Shown: piece after piece, positions 43,478 through 62,183 of the stretch | Position numbering within the stretch: position 1 is the stretch's first letter | How the letters are laid out: the number at the start of each line of letters is the position of its first letter | Origin: Rhodothermales bacterium | GTDB lineage: Bacteria > Bacteroidota > Rhodothermia > Rhodothermales > Bin80 | Length of the DNA: 64,000 bases | NCBI GenBank assembly: GCA_965208025.1 | Contig: OZ242302.1 | Coordinates: forward strand, 656,727-720,726 | Direction of reading: 5' to 3' | The notes under the pieces: generated by a model | Database searches by the model: none | What the model saw: only the letters and a program-made list of their open reading frames with translations | Told to the model about the DNA's origin: nothing | Translations under genes and position numbers: made by a program

Positions 43478-45364
43478 TCAAAGCGTTTGGTTAATCATCG
43501 AAAAGCATGTCTCAAAATTATTGAGTGTGTGATCCGAGAATGTGGGTAGGAACTCATTTCGGTGGCGGAGTAACATATCAGCAGGTTTACCATGATGAAA
43601 ATCTCCCCCTTTCTTACGCGCAATACGCTTCACAATCGGATCGTTTCCTTTTAGATTTGATGCCTTCAGTTCCTTTTCAAAAGCTTTATTGTACAGCGCC
43701 AGATAATCTTCCACATCAAATACATCCTCAATATCGCCGAATTGACCATTTAGCACTCGATCAATAGTTATGATCCGCCTTTCCTTTATATGATTTTGTT
43801 TCATAAGTAATTGTAGCTTCTGGTGTCCTTCAGTACGTGAATCTAACAATACTGTAAAATCAAGATTCTTACCTCCGAGTAATGCCACAAAAGTCGGAAC
43901 GAGATCCGCACCACCTACGGGAATTATTGTCCACCGCGAGTTGAGACCTTCTCTATTTATTTCAATCAAATAATCAGACAAGACAGAGAGGTAAGCGTGG
44001 TCCGAGGTGCCCTCCACCACGAGATTGTCTGGACCAATGAACAGGTTTTGGGCCAGGTCGTAGCCGAGTGCTCCCTGTAGCGGAAACAATGTATCACGAT
44101 CTGTGGCCAATATATCCTGTGAAATTATGGCACCTTTGTCTGGACCACAATCCTCAATCACTCGTGCGCGTTCAAGTTTGCCGGGTTGAATCATAAATGG
44201 AGAGTGCGTTGTGTAGATTACTTGGCAACGATTTGCCAATCGGTCATCTATGAATTTCAAGAAGTCAGACTGCGCCCTCGCATGTAATCCAATTCCTGGC
44301 TCATCCAATAGGATAACCACTGGCTTATCACTAGTTTCATACTCCGAGAATGCAGCAAGAAATGAAAAGAACCACTGAAAACCAGAGGAACGTTCTTCAA
44401 ATGGTAATGACAGCATATGCCTATCATCTCGCATCCTAAAGCGCAGTTCTTTGAGACCCTGTTCCTTTGTGATATCAATCTCAACACGAAGTTCGGGATT
44501 GGTTGTCCAATACTTAAGCACCTCTCGGGTGATGCTATTTGCTACATTCTCAAGCTCTCTCTTTCGCTCCTCGTAATCTTCCGCGAGAAGATATTCATTT
44601 TCCGCACCTGCCTGCATTAGCAGTGATTTCGCAGTTCTCTGACTCTCATCAAGTTGATCATCATTTGAATTGAAAAGTTCTTGAATTTTTACCACACCTG
44701 GTAGTTTATTGAACTCAGAGAAATAGAAGAACGCTGGAATTATCTGCTCTAAATTGGACTGGACCAACTGCGAGAAATCTTGATGCTCATTGAGGTAGTC
44801 TTTAATTCTTGAGTTTAACTGCTCAACAACGGATGCCATTGTGGGATCATCTTCTGATCTTTCTGACAAACCATCAACTATTCCTTGCAGGTCCTCAATT
44901 GAATTTGCTCTGCGAACAGCATCATCAATCGAATTGGATATTGACTCCTGATCTATCAGATTGCTTACTACTTTTGACTCTGACACATCATAGCGATAGT
45001 CAATTGTACCATCATACTTTCTACAAACAGTGATTTCGTTGGAAGCAATCACACCATCACCCAGTGTAGAGTGTAGGATGTCTATATCTGAGCCGTCAAG
45101 TGTGAACCATGCGGTTACTGCCTCAACATCATTGATATTAATGTCCTCTCTACGATGTTTTTTTTGAAGCCACGCTGGATAATGTCTAATCGCTTTAAAT
45201 TCTTTGTTACCTTGAGCGGGGTTGAGTCGGTACAGGGCTTTCAGGAAGGCAGTTTTGCCAGACTCATTCTTCCCAACAAGGCAGGTGACGTCGTCTTGAA
45301 TGTCAACTTCGGAAGAATCCAATATATTGCGAAACATTTGAACCTTTACTCGTGTCAGTTTCAT
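43478..45364 (-). CDS. OLD-family nuclease (ABC-type ATPase fused to Toprim)
   Basis: 628 aa. It starts MKLTRVKVQMFRNI, with Walker A VGKNESGKTAFLKAL, Walker B VILLDEPGIGLH, H-loop TTHSPF, and Toprim LVVEGTSDHAYL plus IIPVGGA. Confidence 0.85.
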   Translation of the reverse strand: MKLTRVKVQMFRNILDSSEVDIQDDVTCLVGKNESGKTAFLKALYRLNPAQGNKEFKAIRHYPAWLQKKHRREDININDVEAVTAWFTLDGSDIDILHSTLGDGVIASNEITVCRKYDGTIDYRYDVSESKVVSNLIDQESISNSIDDAVRRANSIEDLQGIVDGLSERSEDDPTMASVVEQLNSRIKDYLNEHQDFSQLVQSNLEQIIPAFFYFSEFNKLPGVVKIQELFNSNDDQLDESQRTAKSLLMQAGAENEYLLAEDYEERKRELENVANSITREVLKYWTTNPELRVEIDITKEQGLKELRFRMRDDRHMLSLPFEERSSGFQWFFSFLAAFSEYETSDKPVVILLDEPGIGLHARAQSDFLKFIDDRLANRCQVIYTTHSPFMIQPGKLERARVIEDCGPDKGAIISQDILATDRDTLFPLQGALGYDLAQNLFIGPDNLVVEGTSDHAYLSVLSDYLIEINREGLNSRWTIIPVGGADLVPTFVALLGGKNLDFTVLLDSRTEGHQKLQLLMKQNHIKERRIITIDRVLNGQFGDIEDVFDVEDYLALYNKAFEKELKASNLKGNDPIVKRIARKKGGDFHHGKPADMLLRHRNEFLPTFSDHTLNNFETCFSMINQTL

Positions 45365-45581
45365 TATGGTGTTTGTTTCTGGAGAGATATGAAGTCTACA
45401 GTTTATTTCACAAGAGTTGAAGTTCTATAACTTGACATTACGCATCCACAGTGAGAGCACTCGCATACATCCGTACCGCTTTTCAAGAAACCATTCTCCG
45501 TGGTTTAATTATCAAGTTGCATTAACAAGTGGATTAAAGTGAAGAAAGCGTTCATCCGATCACATTCATAGTTCAGGATAG

Positions 45582-45620
45582 AAAAAAGGGTATCCCCTAG
45601 GTAAAGGGATACCCTTTTTC
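45582..45620. terminator. Bidirectional rho-independent terminator
   Basis: 9-bp GC-rich stem gggtatccc/gggataccc (45588-45596 / 45606-45614) with a 9-nt loop, flanked by an A-run on the left and a T-run on the right. It lies 22 nt downstream of the 45642 stop. Confidence 0.75.
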
Positions 45621-45641
45621 ATTAAACATTGACGAATGTCT

Positions 45642-47051
45642 CTACTTCATTAGCATCATTTTGCCACTAAGACGATGACCAGCAACATCTAACTGGTAGA
45701 CGTAAGTACCAGAAGAGAGATCCGTAGCATTAAAGGTGGCGGTGTATTTACCGGCAACTAAATGCTCATCAACAAGCGTGGCGACCTCCCTGCCAAGCAC
45801 ATCATAGACTTTGAGGGTAGCCAGACCCGCGTCCTTCATTTCAAACTCAATATTGGTTTGAGGATTGAATGGATTTGGATAGTTTTGAGACAGAGTAAAT
45901 CCTTGAGGGATTTCCGATGGATCACGCTGAATGCTCGTAGGGCTTTGGTACTTGAATTTTTGGAGCGATGGTACTCCACCAGTATCCCACAAACCTACAT
46001 ATACATACATTCCATCAGGTGAGAATCCCATGGCACGCGTCTTCTGTTTATCATACTCACCTTCAGATAAGTTATATGTGAGACTGTCCACAAATTCGTC
46101 CGTCGCAGGATCAAGAGCGTACCAAGTCAGAAGAGTGTAAGCTCTTGAATCTCCTCCAATTCCAGAATGCTCTGTTGAATTACCAAACCAGAGATAATCA
46201 GTTCTGGGATCTCGTGAACTTGACTCGGCAAGTAGTCCTGGACGAACAAGTCCAGTTGTGTCAGCAAAATTTGCTTGGGTAGTGTAGGGAGAAAACTCAT
46301 CGGAGCGAGTATACTTGACTAAACCAGGTTTCGAGGTTCCTACTGCATCAGGCCAATAAACAGAATTACCATCAGCAGTTACCTCTAAATTACGCGCAAT
46401 ACCAATCGCAGAATCAGTTACAAGTCCTTCAAATCCAAATTCTGAATCAAATATACCGACGGGGTGTCCTCGTGAGACTACTTGCCCCAAATAAATGTTG
46501 CCATTTTCGTCTATCCCTGGTGAAACAGGTTGCGAGTAATTGCTAGCCGCAGATTCACCAAGAGTTACGGAGTTCATTACTTCACCAGTCGCATGATCAA
46601 ACCTAACAATTCTGCCGCCGAGATCACTCCAGGTTCGTCTTAGCGTGACAATGATGTCCCCATTATGATCTGATTTGACACCAGTAACGAAAGCAGGCCC
46701 GCCAAATCCCCCGAGAGTATCTCCTTCAACCACGCGAATTGGATCCCATGGTCTTGTACCGTCAGGATTAAATACGTGAAGAGGAGCGGACAAATATAAA
46801 GTATCACCATTCTCTCCAATCACTGGGCTGTTACTGGCTTGATCAAGCCAAATTTTTCCCGCGGCATCCACGGCAACCCCATGTGTTGCAAGTGTAAACG
46901 AAGAGTCTGGGGGGAAAACGCTCACAAATTCCCAATTCTGAGCACTGACAGAGCTACTCAAAACCAGAACTGAGGCAAAGAATAGAATCGTTTTGCGAAT
47001 CATGGTAAAAAGAGTTTTGTTAAAAGTATTGAATAAAGAAAAAGCTAACAT
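45642..47051 (-). CDS. T9SS-secreted beta-propeller-like protein (C-terminal sorting domain)
   Basis: 469-aa ORF; the likely start is MIRKTILFF at 47003, with a signal peptide. The CTD is LSQNYPNPFNPQTNIEFEM...LKVYDVLGREVATLV...SGTYVYQL...KMMLMK. Confidence 0.8.
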   Translation of the reverse strand: MLAFSLFNTFNKTLFTMIRKTILFFASVLVLSSSVSAQNWEFVSVFPPDSSFTLATHGVAVDAAGKIWLDQASNSPVIGENGDTLYLSAPLHVFNPDGTRPWDPIRVVEGDTLGGFGGPAFVTGVKSDHNGDIIVTLRRTWSDLGGRIVRFDHATGEVMNSVTLGESAASNYSQPVSPGIDENGNIYLGQVVSRGHPVGIFDSEFGFEGLVTDSAIGIARNLEVTADGNSVYWPDAVGTSKPGLVKYTRSDEFSPYTTQANFADTTGLVRPGLLAESSSRDPRTDYLWFGNSTEHSGIGGDSRAYTLLTWYALDPATDEFVDSLTYNLSEGEYDKQKTRAMGFSPDGMYVYVGLWDTGGVPSLQKFKYQSPTSIQRDPSEIPQGFTLSQNYPNPFNPQTNIEFEMKDAGLATLKVYDVLGREVATLVDEHLVAGKYTATFNATDLSSGTYVYQLDVAGHRLSGKMMLMK

Positions 47052-47080
47052 AAAAACCTATATCTGATAAAGATAGTGAA

Positions 47081-48334
47081 TTATCGATATCCCAATCGGC
47101 GTGATATAATTTGAACAATCCCCGAAGGATTTAGGCCAGTAGAATTCGTGGCACCATAAAGCAAACCCTCAGGACCCCATGCAAACCACCTTATGGGCTG
47201 GGTTAGCACGCCCGGATACAATGCCTCTCCAACTTGATCAGGATCAAGTACGATAATAGGATTAACACCATCGGTCCCAATATACAGGTGTCCGCTTGTG
47301 GCAATTGCAAGGGCATGTGGTGTCGCACTATTGAAAGATGTAAGATCAAATATCTCCTGAACTGCACCCAAATCTCCATTAGAATCAATTGAGAAACGCC
47401 ATACCTTACTGGTCTGATCCTGAATACCCGTGACATACAGAACATCACCAAAAAGGATGAGATCACGAATGTCAGCTTCAAAAGAATAGGTGGTAATAGT
47501 CATATCAGAATCAATTCTGTATATGTCAGTGTTGTCTCCAGCAGCCCATATACGATTATTTGAATCTACGGCAATAGAACTTATTTTAGTATTGCGGTCT
47601 GGAATTACTGCAAATACTTCAAAATTAGTCCCACCATCAGGAAACTGGAAGAGTGCTCGTACATTCCGGACAGCATAAAGTGCATTATCCGATCCAAATT
47701 CTAAGTCAAGCCAGGGGAATGAAGTATTGATATATTCACTGCGCTCACCCTCAGGAGTAATACGAATGATGCCAACTGGCAGACCAAATGCGAAAAGAGA
47801 AGCATAGAGATTCCCAGATGCATCCGTCGTAATGCCAAAGACATCCTCAAAATCTTTTATATCTCCGAATTCAATGAATGGAGCATCTAACGCGTAGGGG
47901 ATGCTGTTGCTGAAGTTTTCGGCGCCCACTACGGACATACGGAGTTGTAGCTCGGGTTGAGGCACATTTGGGACAAAGACACGGAGCTGGTTGGCCGAAG
48001 CCTCTAAGACATCTCCCCGGTCCGTTCCGAAATATACAAGATTGTCGGTGGGCTGAATGGAAAAGTTACTGCCCGTAATCGTTACCACATCCACGCCTGC
48101 AAGGGCCCTGCCCTCCGGCGTAATGTTCTCAATGACTGGATCAGGTAAGCTGGAACGGGTGGGATCGTATATACTGACCGCCGTCCCCGAGTCACAACCC
48201 GCCACCAGCGCGAAACAGAACACGCTGGTGATCAAAGCAAGTTGCCCCTGCCTATAAAGAGAATCGAATGGATAGTCGGTGAACATTCGATAGAATACCA
48301 AAATCAGTATACGAATAATCTGCCCCGAAACCAA
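47081..48334 (-). CDS. Lipoprotein with IPT/TIG domain and NHL/beta-propeller-like repeats
   Basis: It has a lipobox (FCFALVAGC), an IPT/TIG-like segment (ITPEGRALAGVDVVTITGSNFS...LVYFG...LRVFVP) and then blade-like repeats. The ATG-based 5' end overlaps the PorV-like gene, so a TTG start near 48235 is more likely. Confidence 0.65.
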   Translation of the reverse strand: MVSGQIIRILILVFYRMFTDYPFDSLYRQGQLALITSVFCFALVAGCDSGTAVSIYDPTRSSLPDPVIENITPEGRALAGVDVVTITGSNFSIQPTDNLVYFGTDRGDVLEASANQLRVFVPNVPQPELQLRMSVVGAENFSNSIPYALDAPFIEFGDIKDFEDVFGITTDASGNLYASLFAFGLPVGIIRITPEGERSEYINTSFPWLDLEFGSDNALYAVRNVRALFQFPDGGTNFEVFAVIPDRNTKISSIAVDSNNRIWAAGDNTDIYRIDSDMTITTYSFEADIRDLILFGDVLYVTGIQDQTSKVWRFSIDSNGDLGAVQEIFDLTSFNSATPHALAIATSGHLYIGTDGVNPIIVLDPDQVGEALYPGVLTQPIRWFAWGPEGLLYGATNSTGLNPSGIVQIISRRLGYR

Positions 48335-49256
48335 ATCCGCGGAGCGATTGCGTCAAACCAAAACCAAAACTCAGGCCCTGCTCATCGGCTGGGAATGAAT
48401 AACCCGCACGAAGGATAAATGTTTGAAGGAACGTATATTCCGTTCCAAGTTTGATCTGCTCAGAAAAGTCTCGAGGGTTCGACGCATCCACAGATAGCAT
48501 CAATTGATGCATGCTTGATCCATAATCAATTAAATCCATCATGTTCATGGATACACCGATGTTGAGGGTCAACGGCAGAGCAACACTCTCTTCACTGAAG
48601 GTAATCTCGGGTGCAAAATTCCGAGCACTGACAGCAAAGTTAAGACTCTGAAAACCCGTTTTGTACAAAACACCAAAATCATAAGCTAAAACCCTCTCTT
48701 CAACGTTATCCCGCTCATACTCGTCCTCCGAGGCAATACCCGTGACGGAATCGGCCAGATACTGGTTCGCAAGTTTGAACTGCGCACCCACGGAAAAACG
48801 ATCCGATAACTTTCGAGCATAACCGACTCCAAAACTCCATGCCGAAGGAGAGAAAGTACCAATATCTAAAAATCCTTGATCATTGTCAAATCGGATGGTC
48901 TCCTCCAATTCGCCATAGTCCACCATCAAGAAAGAAAACCCAATCACACCAAAGCGTCCACTCCCCGGCCGAAATGACACACTCCCAGTCGAATAGTTGA
49001 TTTCAGCAATCCATTGCGTCTGCCCAAGAGCAAGATCAAAATTGCTCTCTTGCCATGCCATGCCGCTGGGGTTATAGAATAACGAAGCGGATCCATGATC
49101 AATCGCGGTCAATGCATCCCCCAAGGCAGCAGCACGTGGATCAACCGAAACAGATAAGAACTTCATCGCCGTCTGAGCAAGCTTTTTCTGCTGAGCAGAT
49201 GCAGGAACTGCCAAAAGAAGCAGGAGCAGCAAGATATACTGAAATCGTCGGTGCAT
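48252..49256 (-). CDS. PorV/PorQ-family outer-membrane beta-barrel (T9SS shuttle paralog)
   Basis: I trimmed the ORF to MHRRFQYILLLL (signal peptide ...VPASAQ). TAMKFLSVSVDPRAAALGDALTAI...ASLFYNPSGMAW is the PorV/PorQ N-terminal signature, and it has an alternating beta-strand C-terminus ending in F-S-L. Confidence 0.75.
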   Translation of the reverse strand: MHRRFQYILLLLLLLAVPASAQQKKLAQTAMKFLSVSVDPRAAALGDALTAIDHGSASLFYNPSGMAWQESNFDLALGQTQWIAEINYSTGSVSFRPGSGRFGVIGFSFLMVDYGELEETIRFDNDQGFLDIGTFSPSAWSFGVGYARKLSDRFSVGAQFKLANQYLADSVTGIASEDEYERDNVEERVLAYDFGVLYKTGFQSLNFAVSARNFAPEITFSEESVALPLTLNIGVSMNMMDLIDYGSSMHQLMLSVDASNPRDFSEQIKLGTEYTFLQTFILRAGYSFPADEQGLSFGFGLTQSLRGFGFGADYSYTDFGILSNVHRLSIRFSL

Positions 49257-49264
49257 GGATAACG

Positions 49265-51388
49265 TCAACGAATAATTACGAATTTCTTGATGATCCTCTC
49301 TCCTGTATCCAGATCCGTGATCACTGCAATATACAAACCACTGGAAACAATCTGTCGAGATGATGTGGTATGATCCCAAAACTCATCCCCGCTACCGTCT
49401 AAGTGCTCAATCTCATCAACAAGCTCCCCGAGATCTGTGTAAATGGCAATCGTACACCGACCTGGGATATTGAAGAATGCAAGCTTATCCGTCTGATCTG
49501 GGAATCGCACCGTCGGACTAGACCCAATATTAAACGGATTGGGTACGATCCGTACATCGGCGAGCGCTTCGCCAGCAGGCCGCTTCAGGCGGGTTGGTGT
49601 ATAGGTCTGCGTGGAATAACGAGAACTCCGTAGAGCGCGCCCCGCAGGAGTAAGACCTGTTCCGTCGTTCATGCTTGCATTCTGTACGGCAACAATGTAA
49701 TAGTAATAATCTATGCCACGAATGGGAGTTGTATCATCAAAGGTGGTGTCTCCTGCTGATGCAGTGTGGACAAGCGTGTAAGTGCTGTCAAATCGGCCTT
49801 GGGCACGATAGATCTCCCAACTGTCAGGTAAAGGTTCAGTGGTATAAGGTGTCCAAGTGAGTAGAATGCGGTCCCCCCCTCCATCTACTTCAAAGACGCT
49901 GGGCGGCGCCGGGCCGCGAGGAATCGCATAGCCCGATTCATAGTTGGCAATCGCCCTCCGAAACGTCTGAAATAATGAATCCCGCCCCGTGAACACCCAC
50001 TCGTTTTTCGTCATGGAATGCGTCTGACCATGCACTTCCAAGGTAATGGGAGAACTGTCATTCGCATTGGACACTTTGTATGCTCTGCCAATCAGGGAAT
50101 TCGCCTCACGGCTTAATCCTGATGCGCCCTCGGCAAGAACAATTCGTATGCTCTCCCCAGGCGCCAGCGTGTAAGGTCCGTATCCGTTTGCATTGGAAAA
50201 TCCTCCAGGAGTGCCCAAACTTGGATCGCCAACTGGACTCAAGAAGCCTGGAAAACCAGAGGGCTCAACAACATCTGCGTGGCGAGGGGATTTATGCCCC
50301 GCAGACATCACACCGTATTCAATCTCCATCTTGGTTGGATTGAATGCATCATTCTGGGATGTATAAGGATCATCAGATCCTACCCATGAAGTGGTAGTTG
50401 GCTGGTTCCGATCATCCGCACGATCGACGGGAGATGTATCAGCATGGAGAGTGACCACGCCGACAAATTGCGAAGCACCTAATCGACCTGTTGTATCAGT
50501 CGGTGCTACATTCACGGCTGGGAGCGCTTGGGGTAAGATAGGCCCTCCAAGATTGTCATAGGCATTGAACGGTGGAAACTTCCCATGCCAAACGTACTGA
50601 GCCCTAAAATCTTCATCTGGTGGATCCACTTTCACTCCATCCCCCCTGGTATCTAACATTGCGTTGAGTCCCCAACTGGTACCGTTTCCAATCACATAAC
50701 GTGTTTCTTTTGCAACAGAGAGTCGCCACTGGAAAAAGAAATAAACTCCTTCCAACGTCTGATTCGGGAGTTCAATTTCAGGATCGTCGTCCGTATTTCC
50801 AGTGTTTGTAAATGTATATTCAAAAACATGATAGTTATCGTGGTATTCTTGGGTGAACTGAAGAATCTTGCGCTCCATGGTGACCCCGAGAAGTGTGTTG
50901 GCTTCGTTCACAATCATGACATCTGCCTCAATGGACGGATCGGCAAAATCCGTAATCATGGCCGCCTCAGGCTCAGAAATCGCCCCATCAACCAACACTG
51001 CCGTTGGAGACAGCCGACTGATAAGATCAAAGCGGGTTGGAAAAAATTCTCCACCACCTGAGACTCGCGGTCCCGCATGTACCACTCGATGAGGGTAGCT
51101 CGTTCCAAGTTCATCCGTCACATTGATTGCACCGATCCACAAAGCTTTGGCAGCCTGCATATCTGTAAAGCGATAGATACCTGGCCACCGAAGCCCATCC
51201 TGTTGGGTACCAACAAAACCACATACTTCACATTCGCTCCCCACTTCGGAATACCAATTGTGCATAGAGCCAGCCGAGAGCCACTTTTTGACAAACTGTG
51301 CATGAACGTCGGTACTGGTACTGAACAATGCAATCAGCACTCCGATAGAGAGGAAATAAAACAAATGCTTGGTAAGGAATTTAATCAT
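49265..51388 (-). CDS. Large secreted protein of unknown function with FN3-like domain and T9SS-type CTD
   Basis: 707 aa with a signal peptide (LIALFSTSTDVHAQ) and an FN3-like segment (ILLTWTPY...WEIYRAQ...YYYYIVAV). The C-terminus is IVPNPFNIGSS...IAIYTDLGELVDEI...SSGLYIAVI...KKFVIIR. Confidence 0.65.
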   Translation of the reverse strand: MIKFLTKHLFYFLSIGVLIALFSTSTDVHAQFVKKWLSAGSMHNWYSEVGSECEVCGFVGTQQDGLRWPGIYRFTDMQAAKALWIGAINVTDELGTSYPHRVVHAGPRVSGGGEFFPTRFDLISRLSPTAVLVDGAISEPEAAMITDFADPSIEADVMIVNEANTLLGVTMERKILQFTQEYHDNYHVFEYTFTNTGNTDDDPEIELPNQTLEGVYFFFQWRLSVAKETRYVIGNGTSWGLNAMLDTRGDGVKVDPPDEDFRAQYVWHGKFPPFNAYDNLGGPILPQALPAVNVAPTDTTGRLGASQFVGVVTLHADTSPVDRADDRNQPTTTSWVGSDDPYTSQNDAFNPTKMEIEYGVMSAGHKSPRHADVVEPSGFPGFLSPVGDPSLGTPGGFSNANGYGPYTLAPGESIRIVLAEGASGLSREANSLIGRAYKVSNANDSSPITLEVHGQTHSMTKNEWVFTGRDSLFQTFRRAIANYESGYAIPRGPAPPSVFEVDGGGDRILLTWTPYTTEPLPDSWEIYRAQGRFDSTYTLVHTASAGDTTFDDTTPIRGIDYYYYIVAVQNASMNDGTGLTPAGRALRSSRYSTQTYTPTRLKRPAGEALADVRIVPNPFNIGSSPTVRFPDQTDKLAFFNIPGRCTIAIYTDLGELVDEIEHLDGSGDEFWDHTTSSRQIVSSGLYIAVITDLDTGERIIKKFVIIR

Positions 51389-51391
51389 GAA

Positions 51392-54300
51392 CTAAAATGA
51401 CAAGCGGATTCCCCAATAGATATCTCGTGGATCAAGGAACGTCAGAAAACTCTGATTGGGCATATCAATATACGCTTTGTCTTCTAATACCTGATCAACA
51501 AGCTGCTCATCCGCTGCCCCCCATGAACCATCCTGATACACCAAATACTGTCTGGAATCAAATTCCCAATAAATGACTCCTTCTTTCGGAGCAGTAATAC
51601 TCTCACGTTCTGCAATTCTCAACATTGGTTGATAAGCAACATCATTAGACCGATACGCCCCGATTTTATCATTCCCGGGAATATTGGTCTGGTAGTCATC
51701 TGATTCAGGGAGATGAAGTGATCTCAAATAGGATAGCTGATCGTTCCCGTCAATAAACCCGTTAAACGACAGTCTACGCGTATTCAGCGTGTTAAAGACA
51801 TCTACAAAGAGTTGCGCACGCCGTCCTGCAATCATCAGATTTTTGGTAAAACGTAGATCAATATTCCAGTAATCCAAATAGGAAACATTATTGATCACCC
51901 CAGGGATCGCTCCTCCACCCGTCCAAGTGAACTTGGATCCTTTCCGCCAGCTACCAATCACGCTGATCCGCCAATCTCCGAGAATGGAAAATGCACCAGC
52001 CTGAGGTCCAAAATCTGTGGGAGTCAGAAAATCTACGTTCAAACGGGCATAAGGCCTGGGGACTGGTCGCGATGAAGCTCGACGTCGCTCCGCATCACTT
52101 TCCGAAAACTCACGCTGTGCCGTGGGGTTTTCAAAGTTCTGTCGCAAACTAAAGTATCCAGAGGTAAATACCATATAGGTGTAATTGACAAAGCCCTGAA
52201 TCCAACGCCCCTTGTCTCGGGACAATGTAAACTCAAATCCGCGAATATCTTCAAAGGAATTCGGTTCATTCACCGTATAATTGACCTGTCCATCACGGCT
52301 GATGTACTGGGTGAGATACGGCTGCAGAGATACATCCTTGTAGTATCCCGCCATTCGGATTAACAATTGGTCAAAGAGAGATTGTTCATAGCCGAGTTCG
52401 TACGCAACGGTCTTCGGTAATGGATTATTTGGATTTGCGACTCGACTGATCTGACCCGTTTCGGTGAACTCGCGAAGTAAAAATAAATTATTGGGATCTG
52501 GCAGGGATCGAAAATGACCATAGTTGAAATACAACTTGCTAAATTCCGTAATTGGAAACGAAACGCCCATCCTCGGACTCAACGAAAAGATATGATTCGT
52601 CGGCTCTTGAGTGAGCAGTGTATCAATTCCAGGGGCGAACCGAGCACTGAATGCTGGACTGAATGGTTCAATGCCGTACCAGTCCCCACCAGCATTGAAA
52701 TAATCCATCCGCAGACCAAGATTCGCAATCATCCCCTCAAACTCAAGCTTGTTTTGTACATAGGCAGCTCCACGTACTGGAGAACGATCCCACTGAGAGT
52801 GGGAGTTGCTGCTCGGTAAAAATTCGTCGAATCGTCCGTAGTTGACCTGCGAATCGGAAAGGTTATACTCCACCCCTGTTTTGACTTGTAGAAACCGATT
52901 GAGCTGACTCGTGAGATCCGCTTTGAAATTAAATGCCGTAACTTGGCTGGTGTCACGGGCGTTACTCATCCCGACCCCCGTACGCATACCATCCACGCCA
53001 AAGGTGGGTTTGGGTTGAAATCCAAATGGAGCCTCATCAAATCCTACGCCACCAAAAAAGGCGACAGGTGTCTCGTCACGAAGCTCGCCCGGGTTGGTAT
53101 CATACGCCGAACGAAATGCGTTCAGACGTATCTCATAAAAGGTAGTAGAACTCAGTGAGTGGGTTAGCTTGATTCCACCCATGAAGTTATTGACCTCAGA
53201 CGGTGTCCAGTAGTCCGTAGAAAAAATCCGAGAATCAATAAAGCTGACACGGCTGAGTTCACCTGCAATGCTTGAAGCAGAGCGGAAAATACCAGGTTGC
53301 CCTACCCTGCTAAATGAAGTTCCTTCCACCCGACCTCTTAGGCCTTCCAGTGTCAATTTAATGCCAGGTCGGAGATCGGCAGTTAACTTCAAATGACCTG
53401 ACCATTCACGGTAACGATCCGAATTCAGTGGAATTAAATACATGCTTTGGTCGGAACGGACCGATGCATAAAACCGAAGATCACCCAAAAATTGACTCAC
53501 GAAGGGAACTGGACCACCGAAACCCACATCAATATTGTAATCTGGATCAACAACCTCCATTGCCTTGCGGTGTTGCCACAGGAATGCTTTTTGAAGTGCT
53601 TCGGGAGTCATATCATTTGAGGGATCATCATCCTTGGATCTCTCTTCGGAGATCGCAATCCATCCCTCAAAGCGCGGGTATTGCGCTTGGGTAAATTCAT
53701 CCCATCCTCCAGCTTCGGTACCTGTCCAAGCGACATCGGGGTCAATGAATGGACGAATCCAATAAGCATTGTTGTCGTCGGCACGAAAACCAAAATGCTT
53801 CTGAGCGGGTGTACTGTAGCGAACGATGGCATTCCCCGAATATCGTCGACGATCCCCTTCTTTGGTTACAACATTTACCACACCTGACCGTACGTTTCCA
53901 TATTCGGCGTTAAATCCACCAGTTTGAACCTGTACCTCCTCAACCGAAGAAAGACTAATGCTTGTATACGGTGCATTATCACGCTCGTCTCGGAGTGTGA
54001 GACCATTCACCATAAAGGATAATTCATCGGATCCACTTCCACGAACAGAAAGCCCCTGGATTCCTGCTTGCAATCCAACTACACTGTTAATGCTAGCAAC
54101 GGGCAGAGCTTCAATCTGATCAGAAGTAACATTTAACTGACTGTTGGACACATCTGCCTGCACAACGGGCAACTCTGCAGTTACAACGATTTCATCAAGT
54201 CCGACGGTATCCTCAGAGAGTTGAAAATTAACCGTAGTCGTCTGATCAATATTGACCCGAACGCCTTCTACGACTTGTGTCCCAAATCCGATAAACGAGG

Positions 54301-54517
54301 ACCGAAGTCTGTAGGTACCCGGAGATACATTCAAGATCGTGTAGTATCCATCCACATCTGAGGTAGCTCCCTGCAGGGTTGAGGGAATGAACAGATTAAC
54401 CCCAGGCAGACCTTCCCCTGAATTATCAGTCACGCGCCCAGTGATCTTACCCGTCTGGGCAAACGCTCCTGCAGAAAACAAAACCGAAACAAACAAAATA
54501 GTACTAACTACTCTCAT
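51392..54517 (-). CDS. TonB-dependent receptor with N-terminal carboxypeptidase-regulatory-like domain (SusC-like architecture)
   Basis: 1041 aa with a signal peptide, GKITGRVTDNSGEGLPGVNLFI...GYYTILNVSPGTYRL, a plug, a long barrel and a terminal IRLSF. Confidence 0.9.
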   Translation of the reverse strand: MRVVSTILFVSVLFSAGAFAQTGKITGRVTDNSGEGLPGVNLFIPSTLQGATSDVDGYYTILNVSPGTYRLRSSFIGFGTQVVEGVRVNIDQTTTVNFQLSEDTVGLDEIVVTAELPVVQADVSNSQLNVTSDQIEALPVASINSVVGLQAGIQGLSVRGSGSDELSFMVNGLTLRDERDNAPYTSISLSSVEEVQVQTGGFNAEYGNVRSGVVNVVTKEGDRRRYSGNAIVRYSTPAQKHFGFRADDNNAYWIRPFIDPDVAWTGTEAGGWDEFTQAQYPRFEGWIAISEERSKDDDPSNDMTPEALQKAFLWQHRKAMEVVDPDYNIDVGFGGPVPFVSQFLGDLRFYASVRSDQSMYLIPLNSDRYREWSGHLKLTADLRPGIKLTLEGLRGRVEGTSFSRVGQPGIFRSASSIAGELSRVSFIDSRIFSTDYWTPSEVNNFMGGIKLTHSLSSTTFYEIRLNAFRSAYDTNPGELRDETPVAFFGGVGFDEAPFGFQPKPTFGVDGMRTGVGMSNARDTSQVTAFNFKADLTSQLNRFLQVKTGVEYNLSDSQVNYGRFDEFLPSSNSHSQWDRSPVRGAAYVQNKLEFEGMIANLGLRMDYFNAGGDWYGIEPFSPAFSARFAPGIDTLLTQEPTNHIFSLSPRMGVSFPITEFSKLYFNYGHFRSLPDPNNLFLLREFTETGQISRVANPNNPLPKTVAYELGYEQSLFDQLLIRMAGYYKDVSLQPYLTQYISRDGQVNYTVNEPNSFEDIRGFEFTLSRDKGRWIQGFVNYTYMVFTSGYFSLRQNFENPTAQREFSESDAERRRASSRPVPRPYARLNVDFLTPTDFGPQAGAFSILGDWRISVIGSWRKGSKFTWTGGGAIPGVINNVSYLDYWNIDLRFTKNLMIAGRRAQLFVDVFNTLNTRRLSFNGFIDGNDQLSYLRSLHLPESDDYQTNIPGNDKIGAYRSNDVAYQPMLRIAERESITAPKEGVIYWEFDSRQYLVYQDGSWGAADEQLVDQVLEDKAYIDMPNQSFLTFLDPRDIYWGIRLSF

Positions 54518-55292
54518 ACATTAATGCAAACAACGAACAATAAAATCAATACAGTCAAATCTTGTGAATAACTGACCTCCACTTCGGCTTCTGCCCAACT
54601 TTCAGTCTAATTTACTGAAAGTTGTTGAATTTGTAACACGAACATAATAATTTATTGTGAGATAATGAAGAATTCTGCTAGAATTCTCGCCTGAGAGGCC
54701 AATTCATGCAGATGATTTCAGAAATTCACTGAAATTTCACAGTTATTAAAAGAGGTTCACGTTAACAAGGTACTATTTTCCATTCATGGACATGAATGGT
54801 TCATGAGTTTTGACCGCAATAATCGGTCCCATCAGTGATTTTGTTGATGGATAAAACATCGTTCATTTCTTCACTACCCTTTACAAAAATTTACCAAACA
54901 TAGTTCCAGCATACCCCAACTTTGCCACTTGTAGTGCCTGAGGTACGGAATTCTTCCATTTCGGCTTTTGATTCCATTATTCATGACCAGCCGATCCTGA
55001 TTCTTTGCCCGATCCGATTTCGGTGATTTGATGTCTCTGTCTGACCTAATTTTGTAGGAATATTTTCTCTACTTAGGGCTCTGGCGTATCAATTGGACAC
55101 AACTGGGCACTCCATTTGGAGTGTTGCGTCTCAATCTTTCCGAACGACTATCCACAGCTATGGACCCTGCGGCTTGGCGGGGCCTTCACTTTCAGGCTTT
55201 ACTTCGTGTTGCTGTATCGTTTTGGTTGCCCTCGGATCATACTTCAATCCCAGACAAGCGAAGAGTTCAATAAAAATAAGGTCAAATTCTGA

Positions 55293-55766
55293 TCACACAC
55301 ATGGATCAGAAAACGGTAATTGTTTTGGGGGAACCGTGTCGTGATTCGTTTGATTCAATTTAATTCCGTCCGAAGCGTGTCCCATCTCGCATTGATCCCC
55401 TCTTGTTTGAACTTCGTACGCGCCAGATTCCACAAAATAAATCAGCACCATGATGAATAGATGTCCATCAGTGCGTTCGACTTTTCAGTGATAGATCAAT
55501 CGTAATCCCAAATCTGACTTCATGACTCTAAACGCATTCGCAATCTCGGTAAGATGCCAGTAAGTCTGTGCAATCTGGCCAAGGGGTAAGTACGTACGAC
55601 TCGTCGGCAGGATACACCCACCAGTCACGTTTCTCCTATTCTCTGAGGAAGGGCTTCGGGTAAAGGCGGCCGAAGGCACATTCTTGTACCCCGCAGAGGC
55701 GGCTCTACCTTCACTTCGTATGAATGGATACCTGCTTGAACTCTTCCCGCAGACATCCCACCCCAT
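55293..55766 (-). pseudogene. C-terminal remnant of an IS4/IS1634-superfamily DDE transposase with an in-frame stop
   Basis: The translation reads ...QTYWHLTEIANAFRVMKSDLGLRLIYH-stop-KVERTDGHLFIMVLIYFVE..., matching the Y..LW.IE.AFR..KSDL..RPIYH(R/K)..E...H.FI motif block. The TGA interrupts this conserved block and no N-terminal part is present. Confidence 0.5.
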
Positions 55767-55988
55767 ACCATCACTTTATCGTTTCGTTTCAGACACTTTT
55801 TTTGGAAGGCCCGTCATCTACCGGAGATTGGCGAAAAAATAACATATCCACGAATCAATCTTGATTGTTTCCAAGATGGGTTCTGATTGTGGTTCTATAG
55901 CATAGTTCTATTACGGCATACTGATCCTGCACCATCAAACCACGGTCAATAATTAGATCCCTGTACCCGAAATCATTATCATTAAAAA

Positions 55989-56017
55989 GGTTCTACCACA
56001 CAAATTGTGATAGAACC
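55989..56017. repeat. 29-bp near-perfect palindrome made of IS-end sequence
   Basis: In ggttctaccacacaaattgtgatagaacc, the arms ggttctaccac and gtgatagaacc are complementary except for one position. Confidence 0.7.
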
Positions 56018-56029
56018 CTTTGCCACTCA

Positions 56030-56180
56030 CAATCCAACGCCAAGGCAGAACGCATTAACGGCAAAATTCAAGAAATCAAAACGGCCGGGAGAGGATACCG
56101 AACGTTTGAAAAATTCAGCAGTGCGATTCTATTCTTCTGTGGAGGTTTAGACCTCTATCCACAAGGTTCGTGGTAGAACC
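56030..56180 (+). pseudogene. ISL3-family transposase C-terminal fragment plus right terminal repeat
   Basis: The translation ...SNAKAERINGKIQEIKTAGRGYRTFEKFSSAILFFCGGLDLYPQGSW-stop is the characteristic ISL3 transposase tail. The stop lies inside the gtggtagaacc end motif (56170-56180). Confidence 0.6.
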
Positions 56181-56284
56181 GTATTTATTATTGGATGCTC
56201 CTCAGAGAAAAGTTAGACAGAATTACAAGTATACCTGCTCCAGATTAGCGGAAGGAAGGAGAACCTTCCTTCCGCTGATCGTCG

Positions 56285-58234
56285 TCACCTGACGAGCACC
56301 ATGGAGCGGGAATGTCTGAATTGTCCCCATTCCAGGGTATAGACATACTGTCCACTGGAAACCGCCATTCCAGAATCAGAGAATCCATCCCAAGTGACAG
56401 AATGCGTACCTTCCGCGAACTGTTCATCATTGATTAGAGTGCGGACAAGGCGTCCAGTTACATCATACACCTTAACGCTCACGCGCTTATCTAATGGCAG
56501 TTCAAAAGAAAATGTAGTGGAAGGATTAAATGGGTTAGGATAATTAGAATGCAACTCAAAATCCGACGGAACAATCACCTTATCCCCAGTAATGAATGTT
56601 GGAGTGAGTCCCTCCCCTGAAAGTACCAACATAAAGCTACGGAAAGGGTGGGGGACCGCAGACTCAGTAGTACGGGTATAAGAACTATCAGCAGGGTTAA
56701 AGACCTCGTTGTAAACGTAAACGCTATCTGGAACCCCAGAGATGGAGACTGCTACCTCATTGTGCCCATCTTCGTCTGTATCACCCAAATATGCAAACTT
56801 CCCAAAAAGTAATCCTCCCGCACCCAATTCGTCATCTTCGTAGGTCGTCGTGAGATACGTCGATTGGACACCTGCACTATCTCGATTCACAGTATCAAAA
56901 ATCATTCCCTCTGGCATTTCAAATTCAATGTGACTTACTTTGTAGCTACTCGGATCTTCAACATTGCCCATACCATCATAGTCAACGATTGTAACCGGTC
57001 TTGGAGGATTTCCAGCCGCAAATTCTGCAGGAGTATAGGGGCGACCAGTTCCTATCAGTTCTGGAATACCATCTTTATCAATGTCTCCATGCGTAAGCCC
57101 CCAATCAGAAACATCATTCAACAGAGGATAGATCACATTTTCTTCGGTAATCATTAGCGGATCTTCCCCCGATTCGTAGTTGATGATGGCAAGACTACGG
57201 TCTTCAAAGGAGGGGCAGTACACCTCATCATCTCCATTCTCATCCATATCCACGACCGTACATCCAAAATATGGGACATCATCAATTTCCGAAGCGTAAT
57301 AGTTAATATTCTCTCCCTCGGAACTAACGTATGTGTCAGGTCCTGTTACATCTATGTTGGTGAAGTTCAGAAAATTCCAGCTGGACAGGGCAATCTCGTA
57401 GGTGCCATCTCCATCCAAATCCGCAGGAACAATTCCAAAAGCACTTCCACCTCCACGATCAACGGGATCGTAATCTTCTGTTGCTCTACTACTAAACCTT
57501 GCTTCAAGTGTAATGGTAGTTAAAGGCGTTCCAAGATCATTTGCCGTCACGATATACCAGCTATCATATCGGTTGTCAGCACCGTTATTTCCAAATAGGA
57601 GCTCATCTATCCCATCTCCATCTACATCAGCAACCGTAATCTGTTCAGTCCTGAACCGATCTGGAACATCCATATCAAAATCCCACAAGTCAGGTAAAAA
57701 ACTGAATGTATTGTCACCTGTAGCTTCAAGGATTCCAAGGCGAGGTCCTTCCAAAACGGCATTTATTCCACTGTCTTCTGGAATGTCGTGCCCTATGAAA
57801 ACATAGATTTCCCCAAAACCATCACCATCCAAGTCCCCGACTCCAACACCTCTGGCATTCTCTGTAGAGTTAGATTCCAGATTCATTGAAAGGGAGGAGT
57901 AAATAAGTTCCCAAGTACCATCTCCAAGATTTTCAAGCACATGAGCTCGGCCACCACCAGAATAATCAGTCAGAACAACCTCAATTTTTCCATCACCATC
58001 TAAATCAAATGGTCTAGAAATACTTGGTGCACTGCGGTGAAGGCCGGGAGCATAAGGGGGGAGATCTGGAACTTGAAAAAGCGGATGAATTGGTCCAACA
58101 TCCGATTGGCCTGGCACCCACTCGAACACTTGTTCCTGAGCAATCGCAGGCGAAATGAAAAAGAGAAGAGACGTAAATGAAAGCAGTACAAATCTATGCA
58201 TCTGACAATTGATCTGGTTAGAAAGTGAAATCAT
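56285..58234 (-). CDS. T9SS-secreted FG-GAP/VCBS repeat protein
   Basis: 649-aa ORF; the likely start is MHRFVLL at 58201. It has at least six Ca-binding-like repeats (DLDGDGKIE, DLDGDGFGE, DVDGDGIDE, DLDGDGTYE, DIDKDGIPE, DTDEDGHNE). CTD: LHSNYPNPFNPSTTFSFELP...VKVYDVTGRLV...SGQYVYTL. Confidence 0.85.
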   Translation of the reverse strand: MISLSNQINCQMHRFVLLSFTSLLFFISPAIAQEQVFEWVPGQSDVGPIHPLFQVPDLPPYAPGLHRSAPSISRPFDLDGDGKIEVVLTDYSGGGRAHVLENLGDGTWELIYSSLSMNLESNSTENARGVGVGDLDGDGFGEIYVFIGHDIPEDSGINAVLEGPRLGILEATGDNTFSFLPDLWDFDMDVPDRFRTEQITVADVDGDGIDELLFGNNGADNRYDSWYIVTANDLGTPLTTITLEARFSSRATEDYDPVDRGGGSAFGIVPADLDGDGTYEIALSSWNFLNFTNIDVTGPDTYVSSEGENINYYASEIDDVPYFGCTVVDMDENGDDEVYCPSFEDRSLAIINYESGEDPLMITEENVIYPLLNDVSDWGLTHGDIDKDGIPELIGTGRPYTPAEFAAGNPPRPVTIVDYDGMGNVEDPSSYKVSHIEFEMPEGMIFDTVNRDSAGVQSTYLTTTYEDDELGAGGLLFGKFAYLGDTDEDGHNEVAVSISGVPDSVYVYNEVFNPADSSYTRTTESAVPHPFRSFMLVLSGEGLTPTFITGDKVIVPSDFELHSNYPNPFNPSTTFSFELPLDKRVSVKVYDVTGRLVRTLINDEQFAEGTHSVTWDGFSDSGMAVSSGQYVYTLEWGQFRHSRSMVLVR

Positions 58235-59175
58235 TTTACATCATGAATATAAAGAAATCTACGCAATTATTATAATCTTCCGCACATTACCCCCAGGGTG
58301 CTCCAGAAGAAGGGGAATTTTGTTTCCAGGCCCTCTCCCCCACTTAATGCGAATCAGCGTCCCTCCCCTATATTTCCTTTATCTTCAACACTCTTAAAAA
58401 CCACCCCGCCAAACGCTCTATATTCTCATTTGCCACTACTCTCGTTAAATTACTCTAATCAGTTCACGCTCCTATGGTTTTATATTCCTTCCTATCAAAC
58501 CGAATCCGAAATTGTCTTATATCATTCTATGTTCTTATTTCCACTCTATGTTCTTCACTGGCAGTTTCCAGTCATCGTTAAGGTCTAGTGAACAGAAAAT
58601 CCAGTTCATTCTCATTGACCAAGGATTCATTGAAACCGCGCCCAAGGCTATCCAAAGATTCATACCATATAGTCATGTATCTGGTCAGTGAAAGATGAAT
58701 GGCCCAATCAAATTGTAGCTATATGTTGGTAGTTGATATGATTAGATGATTGACTTTCATAGTAGGCTACACATCAGGTGTGATCCCAAAAGCCCCATGG
58801 AAATTCATGTTCAAAGCTTTCGTTGATCAACGGTATGCGCCTCTTCAAAGTCAGGTCTTGTTCGCTACAATCCAGTCTACATCCCTAATTGCTGAGAAAT
58901 CTGAATGATTTGAGCAGAAGTATGAGGTACATGAGAGAAGTTACCCTTGGCGTGGTCCGTGATTTTATGATCCAAGCATAATACAATTATCAATCTGCCG
59001 AGCATTATTTTGATAATCAGCCAAAAATTTATTGAGAATCTGCCGAAGTGTTTTGTGATACATGATTTTATCATAACTTCCATAATAATTGTTTATTTGA
59101 CGCAATTTAAGTTAGAACCATCTTAACATATTCATGCTTTTTCTGTTATGAACTGATGATCTATTGAATCATTTA

Positions 59176-59205
59176 TTGACAATCTGCCGAATTATTTTGT
59201 ATAAT
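59176..59205 (+). promoter_or_regulatory. Sigma-70-like promoter candidate for the AAA/DUF4143 ATPase gene
   Basis: TTGACA (59176-59181), 18 nt, then TATAAT (59200-59205), ending 80 nt upstream of the ATG at 59285. It lies within copy C of a triplicated motif. Confidence 0.3.
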
Positions 59206-59284
59206 TCGCCGATATTGTGATCTACGAAATGACATCAATTTTTCGTCCGACACCTGTGGGATGATCCTCTGAAATATTGTACAG

Positions 59285-60553
59285 ATGATAATACCAAAGC
59301 TCATTCCTCGTCGCTCAGAACAGCAGCTCGTGGAGTTAATTCCACACTCTCCTGCGATAATGATTCATGGCCCCAGACAATCTGGTAAGACAACCTTGGC
59401 AAAGCTAATTGGAGACCGACTCGGTTACTCCTACTATACCTTTGATGACTCAAAAACTCTTGCCTCGGTGCAAAGGGATCCCACAGGGTTTATGAACGCG
59501 CTACCAGACCGAGTCATCCTTGATGAGATCCAACTTGTCCCTGAACTATTTCGGCTACTGAAGTTGTCCATAGACCGTCATCGTAGAAATGGCCAATTTA
59601 TCCTCACGGGCTCAACGAATGTCTTATTTCTTCCAGAGTTGATGGATGCGCTCACTGGTCGCATGATGATTGTTCGTTTACATCCGCTATCACAACTGGA
59701 GATTGAGCAAACGAATTCAACGCCTTTCCTCAAACGACTCTTTAGTGGAGATTTTGGAATGAGTCAAACCGAGCCCCTGAGAAGTAATCTTGCAGAGCGA
59801 ATCGTGGCTGGTGGCTATCCCCCTGCGCTGGCTATCCCAATAGATAGCATACGCTCCGCTTGGTACAACAGCTATGTCATCAGCTTAGTTCAGAATGACA
59901 TTTCTGGGCAGGAAAGTGTTCACTCTCTTGAATCACTTCCTGATTTACTCACCGCCACAGCTAATTTGTCTGCACAGTTGTTTAACGTGTCTTCAATCGC
60001 GGCCACACTGCAAATGAATCGCAATACAGTACGGAACTATCTGATCTTGTTGGAGCGCCAATTCTTGATTAAGAGGCTTCCACCTTGGCACAGCAACAAG
60101 ATGAAAAGGATGATTAAAACACCTAAAATTCATCTTGGCGATACTGGTCTCGCATGTTCGCTTTTAAATATTGATGAAGATGATTTGCTCAGTGATCGTA
60201 ACCTAATGGGCCAACTCGTAGAATCATTTGTGTTTCAGGAATTGAGGCGACAAGTAAGTACGTCTGGTAAGCCTTACAGGTTCTACCATTACCGGGATCG
60301 TGACGGGATTGAAGCAGATCTGATTATTGAGTTCGGAGGCTCCAAATTAGCCGGTATTGAAATCAAAGCAGGTGCATCAATCACTCGTTCCGATTTTAGG
60401 GCGTTACGAAAGATCAAGGCAGCTCATGAAGATAGATTCACGTTTGGTGCACTGCTCTACGACGGAGAACTGTGTGCGAGTTTTGGGGATGGGATGTTTG
60501 CAGTTCCAATCCGCATGCTCTGGGAGACTAATCCGAAACCCTACTCGCCGTAA
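59285..60553 (+). CDS. AAA+ ATPase with DUF4143-like C-terminal domain
   Basis: 422 aa with Walker A IHGPRQSGKTTLAK and Walker B VILDEIQ. The C-terminal region (GDTGLACSLL...GQLVESFVFQELRRQ) is typical of the AAA_14/DUF4143 family. Confidence 0.85.
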   Translation: MIIPKLIPRRSEQQLVELIPHSPAIMIHGPRQSGKTTLAKLIGDRLGYSYYTFDDSKTLASVQRDPTGFMNALPDRVILDEIQLVPELFRLLKLSIDRHRRNGQFILTGSTNVLFLPELMDALTGRMMIVRLHPLSQLEIEQTNSTPFLKRLFSGDFGMSQTEPLRSNLAERIVAGGYPPALAIPIDSIRSAWYNSYVISLVQNDISGQESVHSLESLPDLLTATANLSAQLFNVSSIAATLQMNRNTVRNYLILLERQFLIKRLPPWHSNKMKRMIKTPKIHLGDTGLACSLLNIDEDDLLSDRNLMGQLVESFVFQELRRQVSTSGKPYRFYHYRDRDGIEADLIIEFGGSKLAGIEIKAGASITRSDFRALRKIKAAHEDRFTFGALLYDGELCASFGDGMFAVPIRMLWETNPKPYSP

Positions 60554-62171: not shown

Positions 62172-62183
62172 TATTGAAAATAA

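Follow-up and report, generated by a model that had tools for sequence, protein, structure and literature searches.

A minus-strand operon of five genes from a Rhodothermales bacterium (GenBank assembly GCA_965208025.1, contig OZ242302.1) probably encodes a TonB-dependent uptake complex that operates independently of SusD and whose partner protein is docked on a private, PorQ-like outer-membrane barrel. The operon occupies positions 45642-54517 of the 64,000-nt stretch analyzed here, called the window throughout; coordinates preceded by C1 refer to the chromosome of the same genome. In gene order, it comprises a TonB-dependent receptor, a secreted protein of 707 residues (p707, or protein X when its counterparts in other loci are included), an outer-membrane barrel of the PorV/PorQ family, a lipoprotein combining a TIG domain with a beta-propeller and a second beta-propeller protein carrying a type IX secretion system (T9SS) sorting domain of type A. 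The receptor, protein X and the barrel form a three-gene triad that is repeated within this genome and in many others, and the C-terminal domain (CTD) of protein X belongs to a class encountered only in such triads.

The mechanism that we propose combines these elements as follows. The 1041-residue receptor would import the substrate, with energy supplied through its TonB box. Protein X would be exported by the Sec pathway and then across the outer membrane by the T9SS. Its variant CTD would escape cleavage and remain on the co-encoded PorQ-like barrel, as PorQ keeps the tail of PorZ and PorV that of PorU. Such docking would hold the large beta-sandwich domain of X beside or over the receptor, where it could act as the ligand-capturing partner, while the TIG-propeller lipoprotein and the propeller with a type-A tail would be accessory surface proteins binding or processing the substrate. 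From the genomic data presented below we infer that the tail docks on the barrel and is retained there, that X contacts the receptor and that transport is directed inward. A wider proposal, to which we give slightly less than even credence, is that in much of the Fibrobacterota-Chlorobiota-Bacteroidota (FCB) group outside the classical Bacteroidia, the partner of a TonB transporter would be a T9SS cargo bearing a third, PorZ-like and never-cleaved class of CTD seated on a private PorQ-like barrel; the five-gene version, with its identity of about 50% between Rhodothermales and Ignavibacteria, Calditrichota and Kryptoniota, would be a core housekeeping importer in these phyla.

A conserved five-gene unit and its repeated triad

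The five open reading frames (ORFs) all lie on the minus strand, at the coordinates given by an initial annotation made from the sequence alone. The receptor gene (51392-54517, 1041 residues) is followed after 3 nt by the gene of p707 (49265-51388), a secreted protein of an uncharacterized family outside Pfam, and after another 8 nt by the barrel gene (48252-49256, 334 residues). The barrel ORF was originally listed as 48252-49379 with a TTG start codon at 49379; translation probably begins at the ATG at 49256, from which the product (MHRRF...) opens with a signal peptide. The TIG-propeller lipoprotein gene, likewise listed in a longer form (47081-48334), probably starts at the ATG at 48286 and would then span 47081-48286 (401 residues), overlapping the barrel gene by 35 nt. 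The last gene (45642-47051, 469 residues) comes 29 nt further on; the signal peptide of its product begins at an internal methionine, at position 47003. The operon is closed by an intrinsic terminator on the same strand (45582-45620), a hairpin with a 17-bp stem, a folding free energy of -25.1 kcal/mol and a z-score of -5.25, followed by a U-run. Terminator-like and promoter-like matches inside the operon occur at chance level when compared with shuffled sequence. The initial description of five closely packed minus-strand genes ending in a strong terminator is borne out by these coordinates and by the hairpin computation.

Conservation of the unit was assessed by scanning species-representative genomes, in which 570 loci were confirmed and 80 kept for analysis. 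The order receptor, X, barrel, TIG lipoprotein and CTD propeller is maintained in essentially every one of the 80 loci that is long enough to display it. This synteny extends over Rhodothermales, Rubricoccaceae, Balneolaceae, Cyclonatronaceae, Ignavibacteriales, Melioribacteraceae, Calditrichota, Kryptoniota and Zhuqueibacter. The Ignavibacteria proteins share, in gene order, about 50, 55, 47, 33 and 35% identity with those of the window. The cultured Roseithermus sacchariphilus RA possesses the same five genes, followed in the downstream position by a gene encoding a GHL10 domain and a CTD. The initial annotation had named a lack of synteny outside this genome as grounds for refutation; the comparison came out positive in nearly all of the 80 loci, and the five genes can be regarded as one conserved unit.

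The flanks of the 80 loci have no further gene that is generally conserved. A fusion of glucosamine-6-phosphate isomerase with PIG-L is found upstream in 8 of them, and MurB, GT2, Band_7 and PD40 genes in a few each. The idea of an amino-sugar or peptidoglycan substrate that such neighbors evoke is a weak lead, since the flanking genes are not generally conserved.

The repeating unit is the triad of receptor, X and barrel; the pair of propeller genes is an accessory that goes with this ortholog group alone. The genome of the Rhodothermales bacterium contains five triads, starting at C1:225960, C1:704978 (the window locus), C1:968505, C1:1003667 and C1:3607122. Their X proteins range from 707 to 1173 residues and can be aligned between triad types only over the last 100 residues or so, a pattern that fits a common anchor joined to a variable working end. 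When the five triads, designated A to E, are compared part by part, A comes closest to B and C to E whichever part is taken, be it the receptor, protein X, its tail or the barrel; triads have therefore been duplicated and have diverged as whole units.

The same organization holds well outside this genome. Twenty further proteins with matching X tails were retrieved from 20 other genomes, which represent about ten families, and every one of them belongs to a triad: 18 follow the usual gene order and have the barrel gene next to X, one has its barrel gene about 1 kb downstream and one is arranged as barrel, receptor and X. In a phylum-level sample of 301 genomes, X tails were found in 161, a single genome containing as many as 16, and the T9SS translocon SprA in 237. 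SprA is present in all 161 genomes with X tails and X tails in none of the 64 genomes lacking SprA, a phylogenetically clustered co-occurrence that is consistent with a dependence of protein X on the T9SS.

Some of the paralogous triads have neighbors of their own. Around triad E (C1:3602000-3622000) are found a protein with a family 9 carbohydrate-binding module (CBM9) and a CTD, the triad itself, a SurA-like peptidyl-prolyl isomerase and an enzyme composed of a family 16 glycoside hydrolase (GH16) domain, a CBM6 and a CTD, adjoining a true SusC/SusD pair; in this region, the SusC/SusD and triad designs of uptake stand side by side. Downstream of triad C comes the gene of a CTD-bearing amidase. 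In five of the orthologous loci (L056, L059, L073, L085 and L096, from Ignavibacteria, Calditrichota, Kryptoniota and Zhuqueibacter), a second, diverged module is present downstream in the order barrel, receptor and X; its X protein is about 35% identical to p707 and its barrels constitute a sister clade with support values of 100/99.

The three partners of the triad

The receptor displays the general attributes of TonB-dependent transporters, namely a signal peptide, a TonB box, a plug, a large barrel and an aromatic C-terminus, here a phenylalanine (...IRLSF). Between signal peptide and plug is inserted a carboxypeptidase-regulatory-like N-terminal domain (residues 25-112). Pfam assigns 71 bits to CarbopepD_reg_2, 28.7 bits to the plug (PF07715, cut-off 23.9) and 38.1 bits to OMP_b-brl_3. 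The TonB-box-like sequence DEIVVTA occupies residues 108-114, and the motif (D/E)E(I/V/L/M)(V/I)V(T/V/I)A is kept after the N-terminal domain in all 73 receptor orthologs. N-terminal domain, TonB-box-like motif and plug are common to all five receptor paralogs of the genome.

The receptor had been called SusC-like, a designation that holds for its N-terminal 220 residues only. The SusC/RagA model TIGR04056 gives it 71.8 bits, over residues 24-160 only, and 74.1 bits in the genome scan, for a cut-off of 368; its match in the PDB is a SusC homolog, limited to residues 9-222. Four true SusC genes, scoring 547-624 bits with the same model, are located elsewhere in the genome, along with at least one SusD. 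With a TIGR04056 score (72-74 bits) far under the cut-off, the receptor falls outside the SusC family.

The tail of protein X sets it apart from ordinary T9SS cargo. In p707, this X-type domain spans residues 603-707 (49268-49582, minus strand), as defined by alignment and by a hidden Markov model (HMM), and is proposed to be the docking domain. It adopts a seven-strand immunoglobulin-like layout that opens with VPNP(F/Y) and closes with KF.(V/I)I(K/R), NIPG and H.DGSGD.W being further motifs. The layout and the PNP(F/Y) start, seen in the structural model and in the alignment, are common to X tails and T9SS tails; the other three motifs are proper to X tails. An X-tail HMM trained only on tails of p707 relatives encoded outside this genome retrieves from it exactly the five triad X proteins, at 58-179 bits, the next protein being PorZ at 14.9 bits. 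Conversely, an HMM of the ordinary type-A class, built from 31 tails in this genome, finds 60 proteins, PorU included, and of the X proteins that of triad A only, weakly, at 20.7 bits. When the PorZ family model is run on the genome, the best matches after PorZ itself are the tails of the triad-D X protein, of p707 and of the triad-E X protein. In an NCBIfam-type profile search, the C-terminal 100 residues of p707 match only the C-terminus of PorZ, weakly (E = 2.4e-5). The p707 tail yields no type-A match with Pfam or TIGR04183 at E < 0.01 and no type-B match with CHU_C (PF13585). An assignment of this tail to the ordinary type-A or type-B classes was rejected on the results of Pfam, TIGR04183, the type-A HMM and PF13585. 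By these profile comparisons, X tails are a separate, PorZ-like class found only in triads. The initial annotation had attributed to the 707-residue protein an FN3-like domain and a CTD; the former is present, as detailed below, and the latter has to be reassigned from the ordinary T9SS CTDs to this PorZ-like class.

A putative T9SS cargo encoded next to its own barrel could be read in a simpler way. Protein X might be a surface adhesin or motility protein served by a barrel of its own, comparable to SprB and SprF, its linkage with the receptor being mechanistically meaningless. A cargo gene followed by its cognate PorV-like barrel gene is indeed the layout of type-B CTD adhesins with PorP/SprF (PMC10202324), and the FN3 domain of X is common in adhesins. 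We regard this explanation as highly improbable: a receptor gene lies next to that of X in every one of 20 unrelated triads and, among the 80 ortholog loci, in practically all, mostly with gaps or overlaps of a few bases, the three triad members co-diverge, and the tail of X, devoid of a CHU_C match, is not of type B.

The barrel belongs to the PorV/PorQ family by its score with NF033709 (210.2 bits over positions 1-325 of 326, cut-off 90). It remains below the equivalog cut-offs of both PorQ (NF033711, 102.5 bits for a cut-off of 220) and PorV (NF033710, 86.9 for 250). Its closest solved structure is the PorV of Flavobacterium johnsoniae (6h3i, E = 2e-7), and triad barrels score higher with PorQ than with PorV models. 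The genome encodes ten PorV/PorQ-family proteins, five of which are in triads. In characterized systems, PorZ keeps its CTD, which binds PorQ, and the tail of PorU remains on PorV; it has been suggested that cognate PorV-like barrels may protect special CTDs from cleavage (PMC10202324). By analogy, we propose that the barrel is a dedicated anchor for the p707 tail. The initial label of private PorV paralog is retained insofar as the barrel appears dedicated to the neighboring cargo; it needs amending in that the barrel is nearer to PorQ, an anchor, than to PorV, a shuttle, and is one of ten paralogs.

The arrangement of cargo with private barrel also exists in this genome without a TonB receptor and without an X-type tail: at C1:1340692-1344195, two tandem PorV/PorQ-family barrel genes (334 and 302 residues) come after the gene of a 529-residue BNR/Ycf48-like protein that ends in a type-A CTD.

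The kinship of X tails with PorZ and of triad barrels with PorQ raises an alternative in which barrel and X would be an additional T9SS attachment-type sub-complex, analogous to PorQ/PorZ and delivering surface polymers or lipopolysaccharide or sorting cargo, the receptor serving as a structural platform and not as an importer. Besides the tails, which are nearest relatives, and the PorQ-like barrels, this view can invoke the beta-propeller proteins of the operon, a feature shared with PorZ, and the high conservation across phyla together with the lack of catabolic genes, which would suit housekeeping surface assembly. The genome, which measures 3.77 Mb, is nevertheless already equipped elsewhere with canonical T9SS genes: SprA, PorU (972 bits) beside PorV (306 bits), PorQ (228.7 bits) and PorZ (384 bits). 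Up to 16 triads per genome with unrelated X bodies fit a diversity of substrates, some paralogous triads lie amid glycoside hydrolases and CBM proteins, and plug and TonB box are present in all receptor orthologs. Taken with these observations, an attachment role seems quite unlikely.

The remaining parts of p707 bear on what protein X could do next to a receptor. No Pfam family covers p707, and its homologs, numbering at least 1599, are all annotated as hypothetical; at E < 1e-30 they correspond to 318 cluster representatives at 50% identity. The full-length AlphaFold model (predicted local distance difference test, pLDDT, 89.2; predicted template modeling score, pTM, 0.86) starts with the signal peptide and continues with an all-beta domain, which covers about 460 residues and ends in a long helix, an FN3 domain, a linker and the tail. 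The FN3 domain (residues 496-593; 49610-49903, minus strand) is recognized in the model, by Foldseek, which also returned tandem-FN3 matches, and by profile search of the PDB, with the Fn3-like structure 3mpc (E = 8.8e-7) and the pectate-lyase Fn3 structure 3b4n (E = 1.1e-6). The N-terminal all-beta domain (residues 31-495; 49904-51298, minus strand), delimited on the model, is the putative ligand-capture part. Foldseek against the PDB detects in it a weak and consistent likeness to the non-catalytic N-terminal beta-supersandwich of glycosidase-type enzymes, covering GH94, GH116, GH63, GH65 and GH161 enzymes and cyclic glucan synthase (TMq 0.23-0.31, E from 1e-6 to 1e-4). The catalytic (alpha/alpha)6 barrel of these enzymes is absent from the p707 model. 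In the ortholog alignment, many tryptophan, aspartate, glutamate and histidine residues of the N-terminal domain are invariant, and p707 identity across phyla reaches 55-60%. From the weak fold match and the neighbors of the paralogous triads, one might hazard that the substrate is a glycan, possibly with amino sugars; this is a weak guess.

A SusD-like fold was also considered for p707 and rejected: the model is almost wholly beta, Foldseek returned no SusD or tetratricopeptide-repeat match and the protein has no lipobox. Pfam detects SusD families in none of the five operon proteins, the one SusD_RagB match in the genome (PF07980) being located at C1:3617217-3618074. The absence of a SusD homolog noted initially is confirmed, and a SusD-like fold in the 707-residue protein, which the initial annotation said would reduce the novelty to a standard PUL, was not found by Foldseek.

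The same N-terminal domain could, on the other hand, be that of an enzyme. Protein X would then be no passive lid but a surface enzyme, perhaps of a new family that modifies or cleaves glycans, tethered by the barrel beside the receptor and producing oligomers for import, with the propellers binding substrate. Its identity of 55-60% across phyla, the invariant aspartate, glutamate, histidine and tryptophan residues, the fold likeness to domains of glycoside hydrolases and phosphorylases and the lack of any other enzyme in the conserved unit all speak in this direction. The matched part is, however, a non-catalytic N-terminal sandwich, p707 lacks the catalytic barrel, and no enzyme family in Pfam, NCBIfam or the PDB matches its sequence. 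We consider an enzymatic function of X unlikely.

Several points weigh against the uptake complex that we favor. The contacts that would link X, barrel and receptor are deduced from genomes, and co-transcription of the five genes is presumed from their spacing and synteny. A protein that does nothing but bind its ligand is seldom conserved to the degree of p707, which might point to an enzyme or to several protein interfaces. The fold match of the N-terminal domain is weak (TMq at most 0.31, root-mean-square deviation 9-19 Å), and when this domain is modeled by itself the pLDDT is only 73.6, compared with 89.2 in the full-length model, and the fold matches are no sharper. At least the 20 SprA-less genomes that were itemized belong to one family, so that few independent events underlie the co-occurrence of X tails with SprA. 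Finally, the five-gene unit comes without a linked enzyme, regulator or inner-membrane transporter, unlike a polysaccharide utilization locus (PUL). The initial annotation had imagined a PUL-like system in which T9SS-attached proteins replace SusD. We favor the replacement of SusD by a T9SS-attached partner, whereas the PUL-like character is not established: the five genes include no SusD, no true SusC, no regulator and no carbohydrate-active enzyme, and across the 80 loci none of the latter was found in the conserved genes or in their variable flanks.

Accessory propeller proteins and surroundings of the operon

The two last genes of the operon encode propeller proteins. The lipoprotein combines a TIG domain (39 bits) with Reg_prop and SGL propeller repeats detected by Pfam, and carries the lipobox LVAGC. 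The lipobox cysteine is kept in 58 of 65 orthologs and is followed at position +2 most commonly by aspartate, then by acidic residues. Acidic residues after the lipobox cysteine are a lipoprotein export signal in Bacteroidota, which suggests that the TIG-propeller lipoprotein is surface-exposed. The last protein ends in an ordinary type-A CTD by the scores of Por_Secre_tail (PF18962, 35.9 bits, cut-off 27) and TIGR04183 (35.2 bits, cut-off 23), and its repeats match designed propellers of the PQQ/NHL type.

A further possible accessory is encoded upstream of the operon, at 56285-58234 on the minus strand, by a gene for an FG-GAP repeat protein with a type-A CTD, both identified with Pfam. A paralog with 58% identity lies directly upstream of triad C, and FG-GAP/CTD genes flank the operon also in loci L029-L032 and L096. 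In the window, 1.77 kb now intervene between this gene and the operon, containing what look like the scars of mobile elements: the segment 54915-55350, in the gap upstream of the receptor gene, is 83% identical to C1:1729567-1730007, and adjacent pieces match other loci. Just downstream of the FG-GAP/CTD gene, at 56018-56190, lies an interspersed repeat of about 163 bp with at least 30 chromosomal copies sharing about 97% identity, one of which (C1:977819-977959) is located beside the FG-GAP paralog of triad C. This repeat looks like a miniature inverted-repeat transposable element or a repetitive extragenic palindromic sequence.

On the other side of the operon, directly after the terminator, a stand-alone gene of the OLD family (43478-45364), encoding an ATPase/nuclease with AAA_15 and Toprim domains, marks the edge of a transposase-rich island. 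Near the end of the window (60813-64000), an ORF of about 600 residues resembling a TonB-dependent receptor is followed by a 452-residue propeller protein with a type-A-CTD-like C-terminus, forming a second pair of receptor and partner. A search for known RNAs and riboswitches in 44000-59500 detected none, cobalamin riboswitches included, its sole match being a chance snoRNA (E = 0.87).

Comparison with known systems

TonB transporters with surface partners, such as SusCD, RagAB and BtuBG, are central to the feeding of Bacteroidota. To our knowledge, the surface partners of TonB-dependent transporters known so far are all lipoproteins. Should the proposed complex be real, it would link two major outer-membrane systems of the group, the T9SS and TonB-dependent uptake, and define a third functional class of T9SS CTD. 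It would also give a role to many unexplained extra PorV/PorQ paralogs, including five of the ten present in this genome, and explain how substrates are captured in abundant environmental lineages that are poor in SusD, such as Rhodothermales, Balneolales, Ignavibacteria and Calditrichota. In our literature search, we found no description of a receptor-cargo-barrel triad or of the five-gene operon, on which the Caldithrix genome paper is silent; this agrees with the initial impression that the locus is not of a described type. The pair IhtA/IhtB of Porphyromonas gingivalis was considered as an earlier case of a receptor served by a T9SS cargo and dropped, IhtB being called a lipoprotein in a review.

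The SusC/SusD (RagA/RagB) utilisomes offer the closest parallel for the front of the operon: in both cases, a transporter of about 1000 residues with a carboxypeptidase-regulatory-like N-terminal domain is encoded immediately upstream of a surface partner, the operon includes further surface accessories and, for the paralogous triads, secreted glycoside hydrolases and CBM proteins are encoded nearby. The differences are equally marked. The receptor described here fails TIGR04056, and its partner is all-beta instead of helical, has no lipobox and comes with a CTD-like tail and a dedicated barrel; moreover, this ortholog group lacks the linked enzymes, regulator and inner-membrane transporter of SusC/SusD loci. 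In the BtuB-BtuG system of Bacteroides, the surface beta-propeller lipoprotein BtuG caps BtuB, a receptor of about 650 residues, and captures cobalamin. The present operon encodes two propeller proteins, and the second pair of receptor and partner in the window includes a propeller as well; the operon's receptor, however, is much larger at 1041 residues, its principal partner has a fold other than the propeller, and it is not accompanied by a cobalamin riboswitch.

With the PorQ-PorZ and PorV-PorU pairs of P. gingivalis (PMC10202324), the triad would share the principle of a cargo CTD retained on a barrel of the PorV family, as proposed here, and the likeness extends to the sequences, the X tail coming nearest to that of PorZ and the triad barrel, by score, to PorQ. 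The kinship of protein X with PorZ ends, however, at the tail, the triad barrels score below the equivalog cut-offs and the triads are multi-copy and always include a TonB-dependent receptor; unlike an attachment complex, they coexist with canonical PorQ, PorZ, PorU and PorV encoded separately in the same genome. The pairs of type-B cargo with PorP/SprF barrels, exemplified by SprB-SprF of F. johnsoniae, resemble the triad in having the cargo gene directly before its own PorV-like barrel gene and in the proposed principle of a cognate barrel that handles and perhaps protects a special class of CTD (PMC10202324). They differ from it in that the tail of X is not of type B, the triad barrel is a member of the PorV/PorQ family and the TonB-dependent receptor is an obligatory third member.

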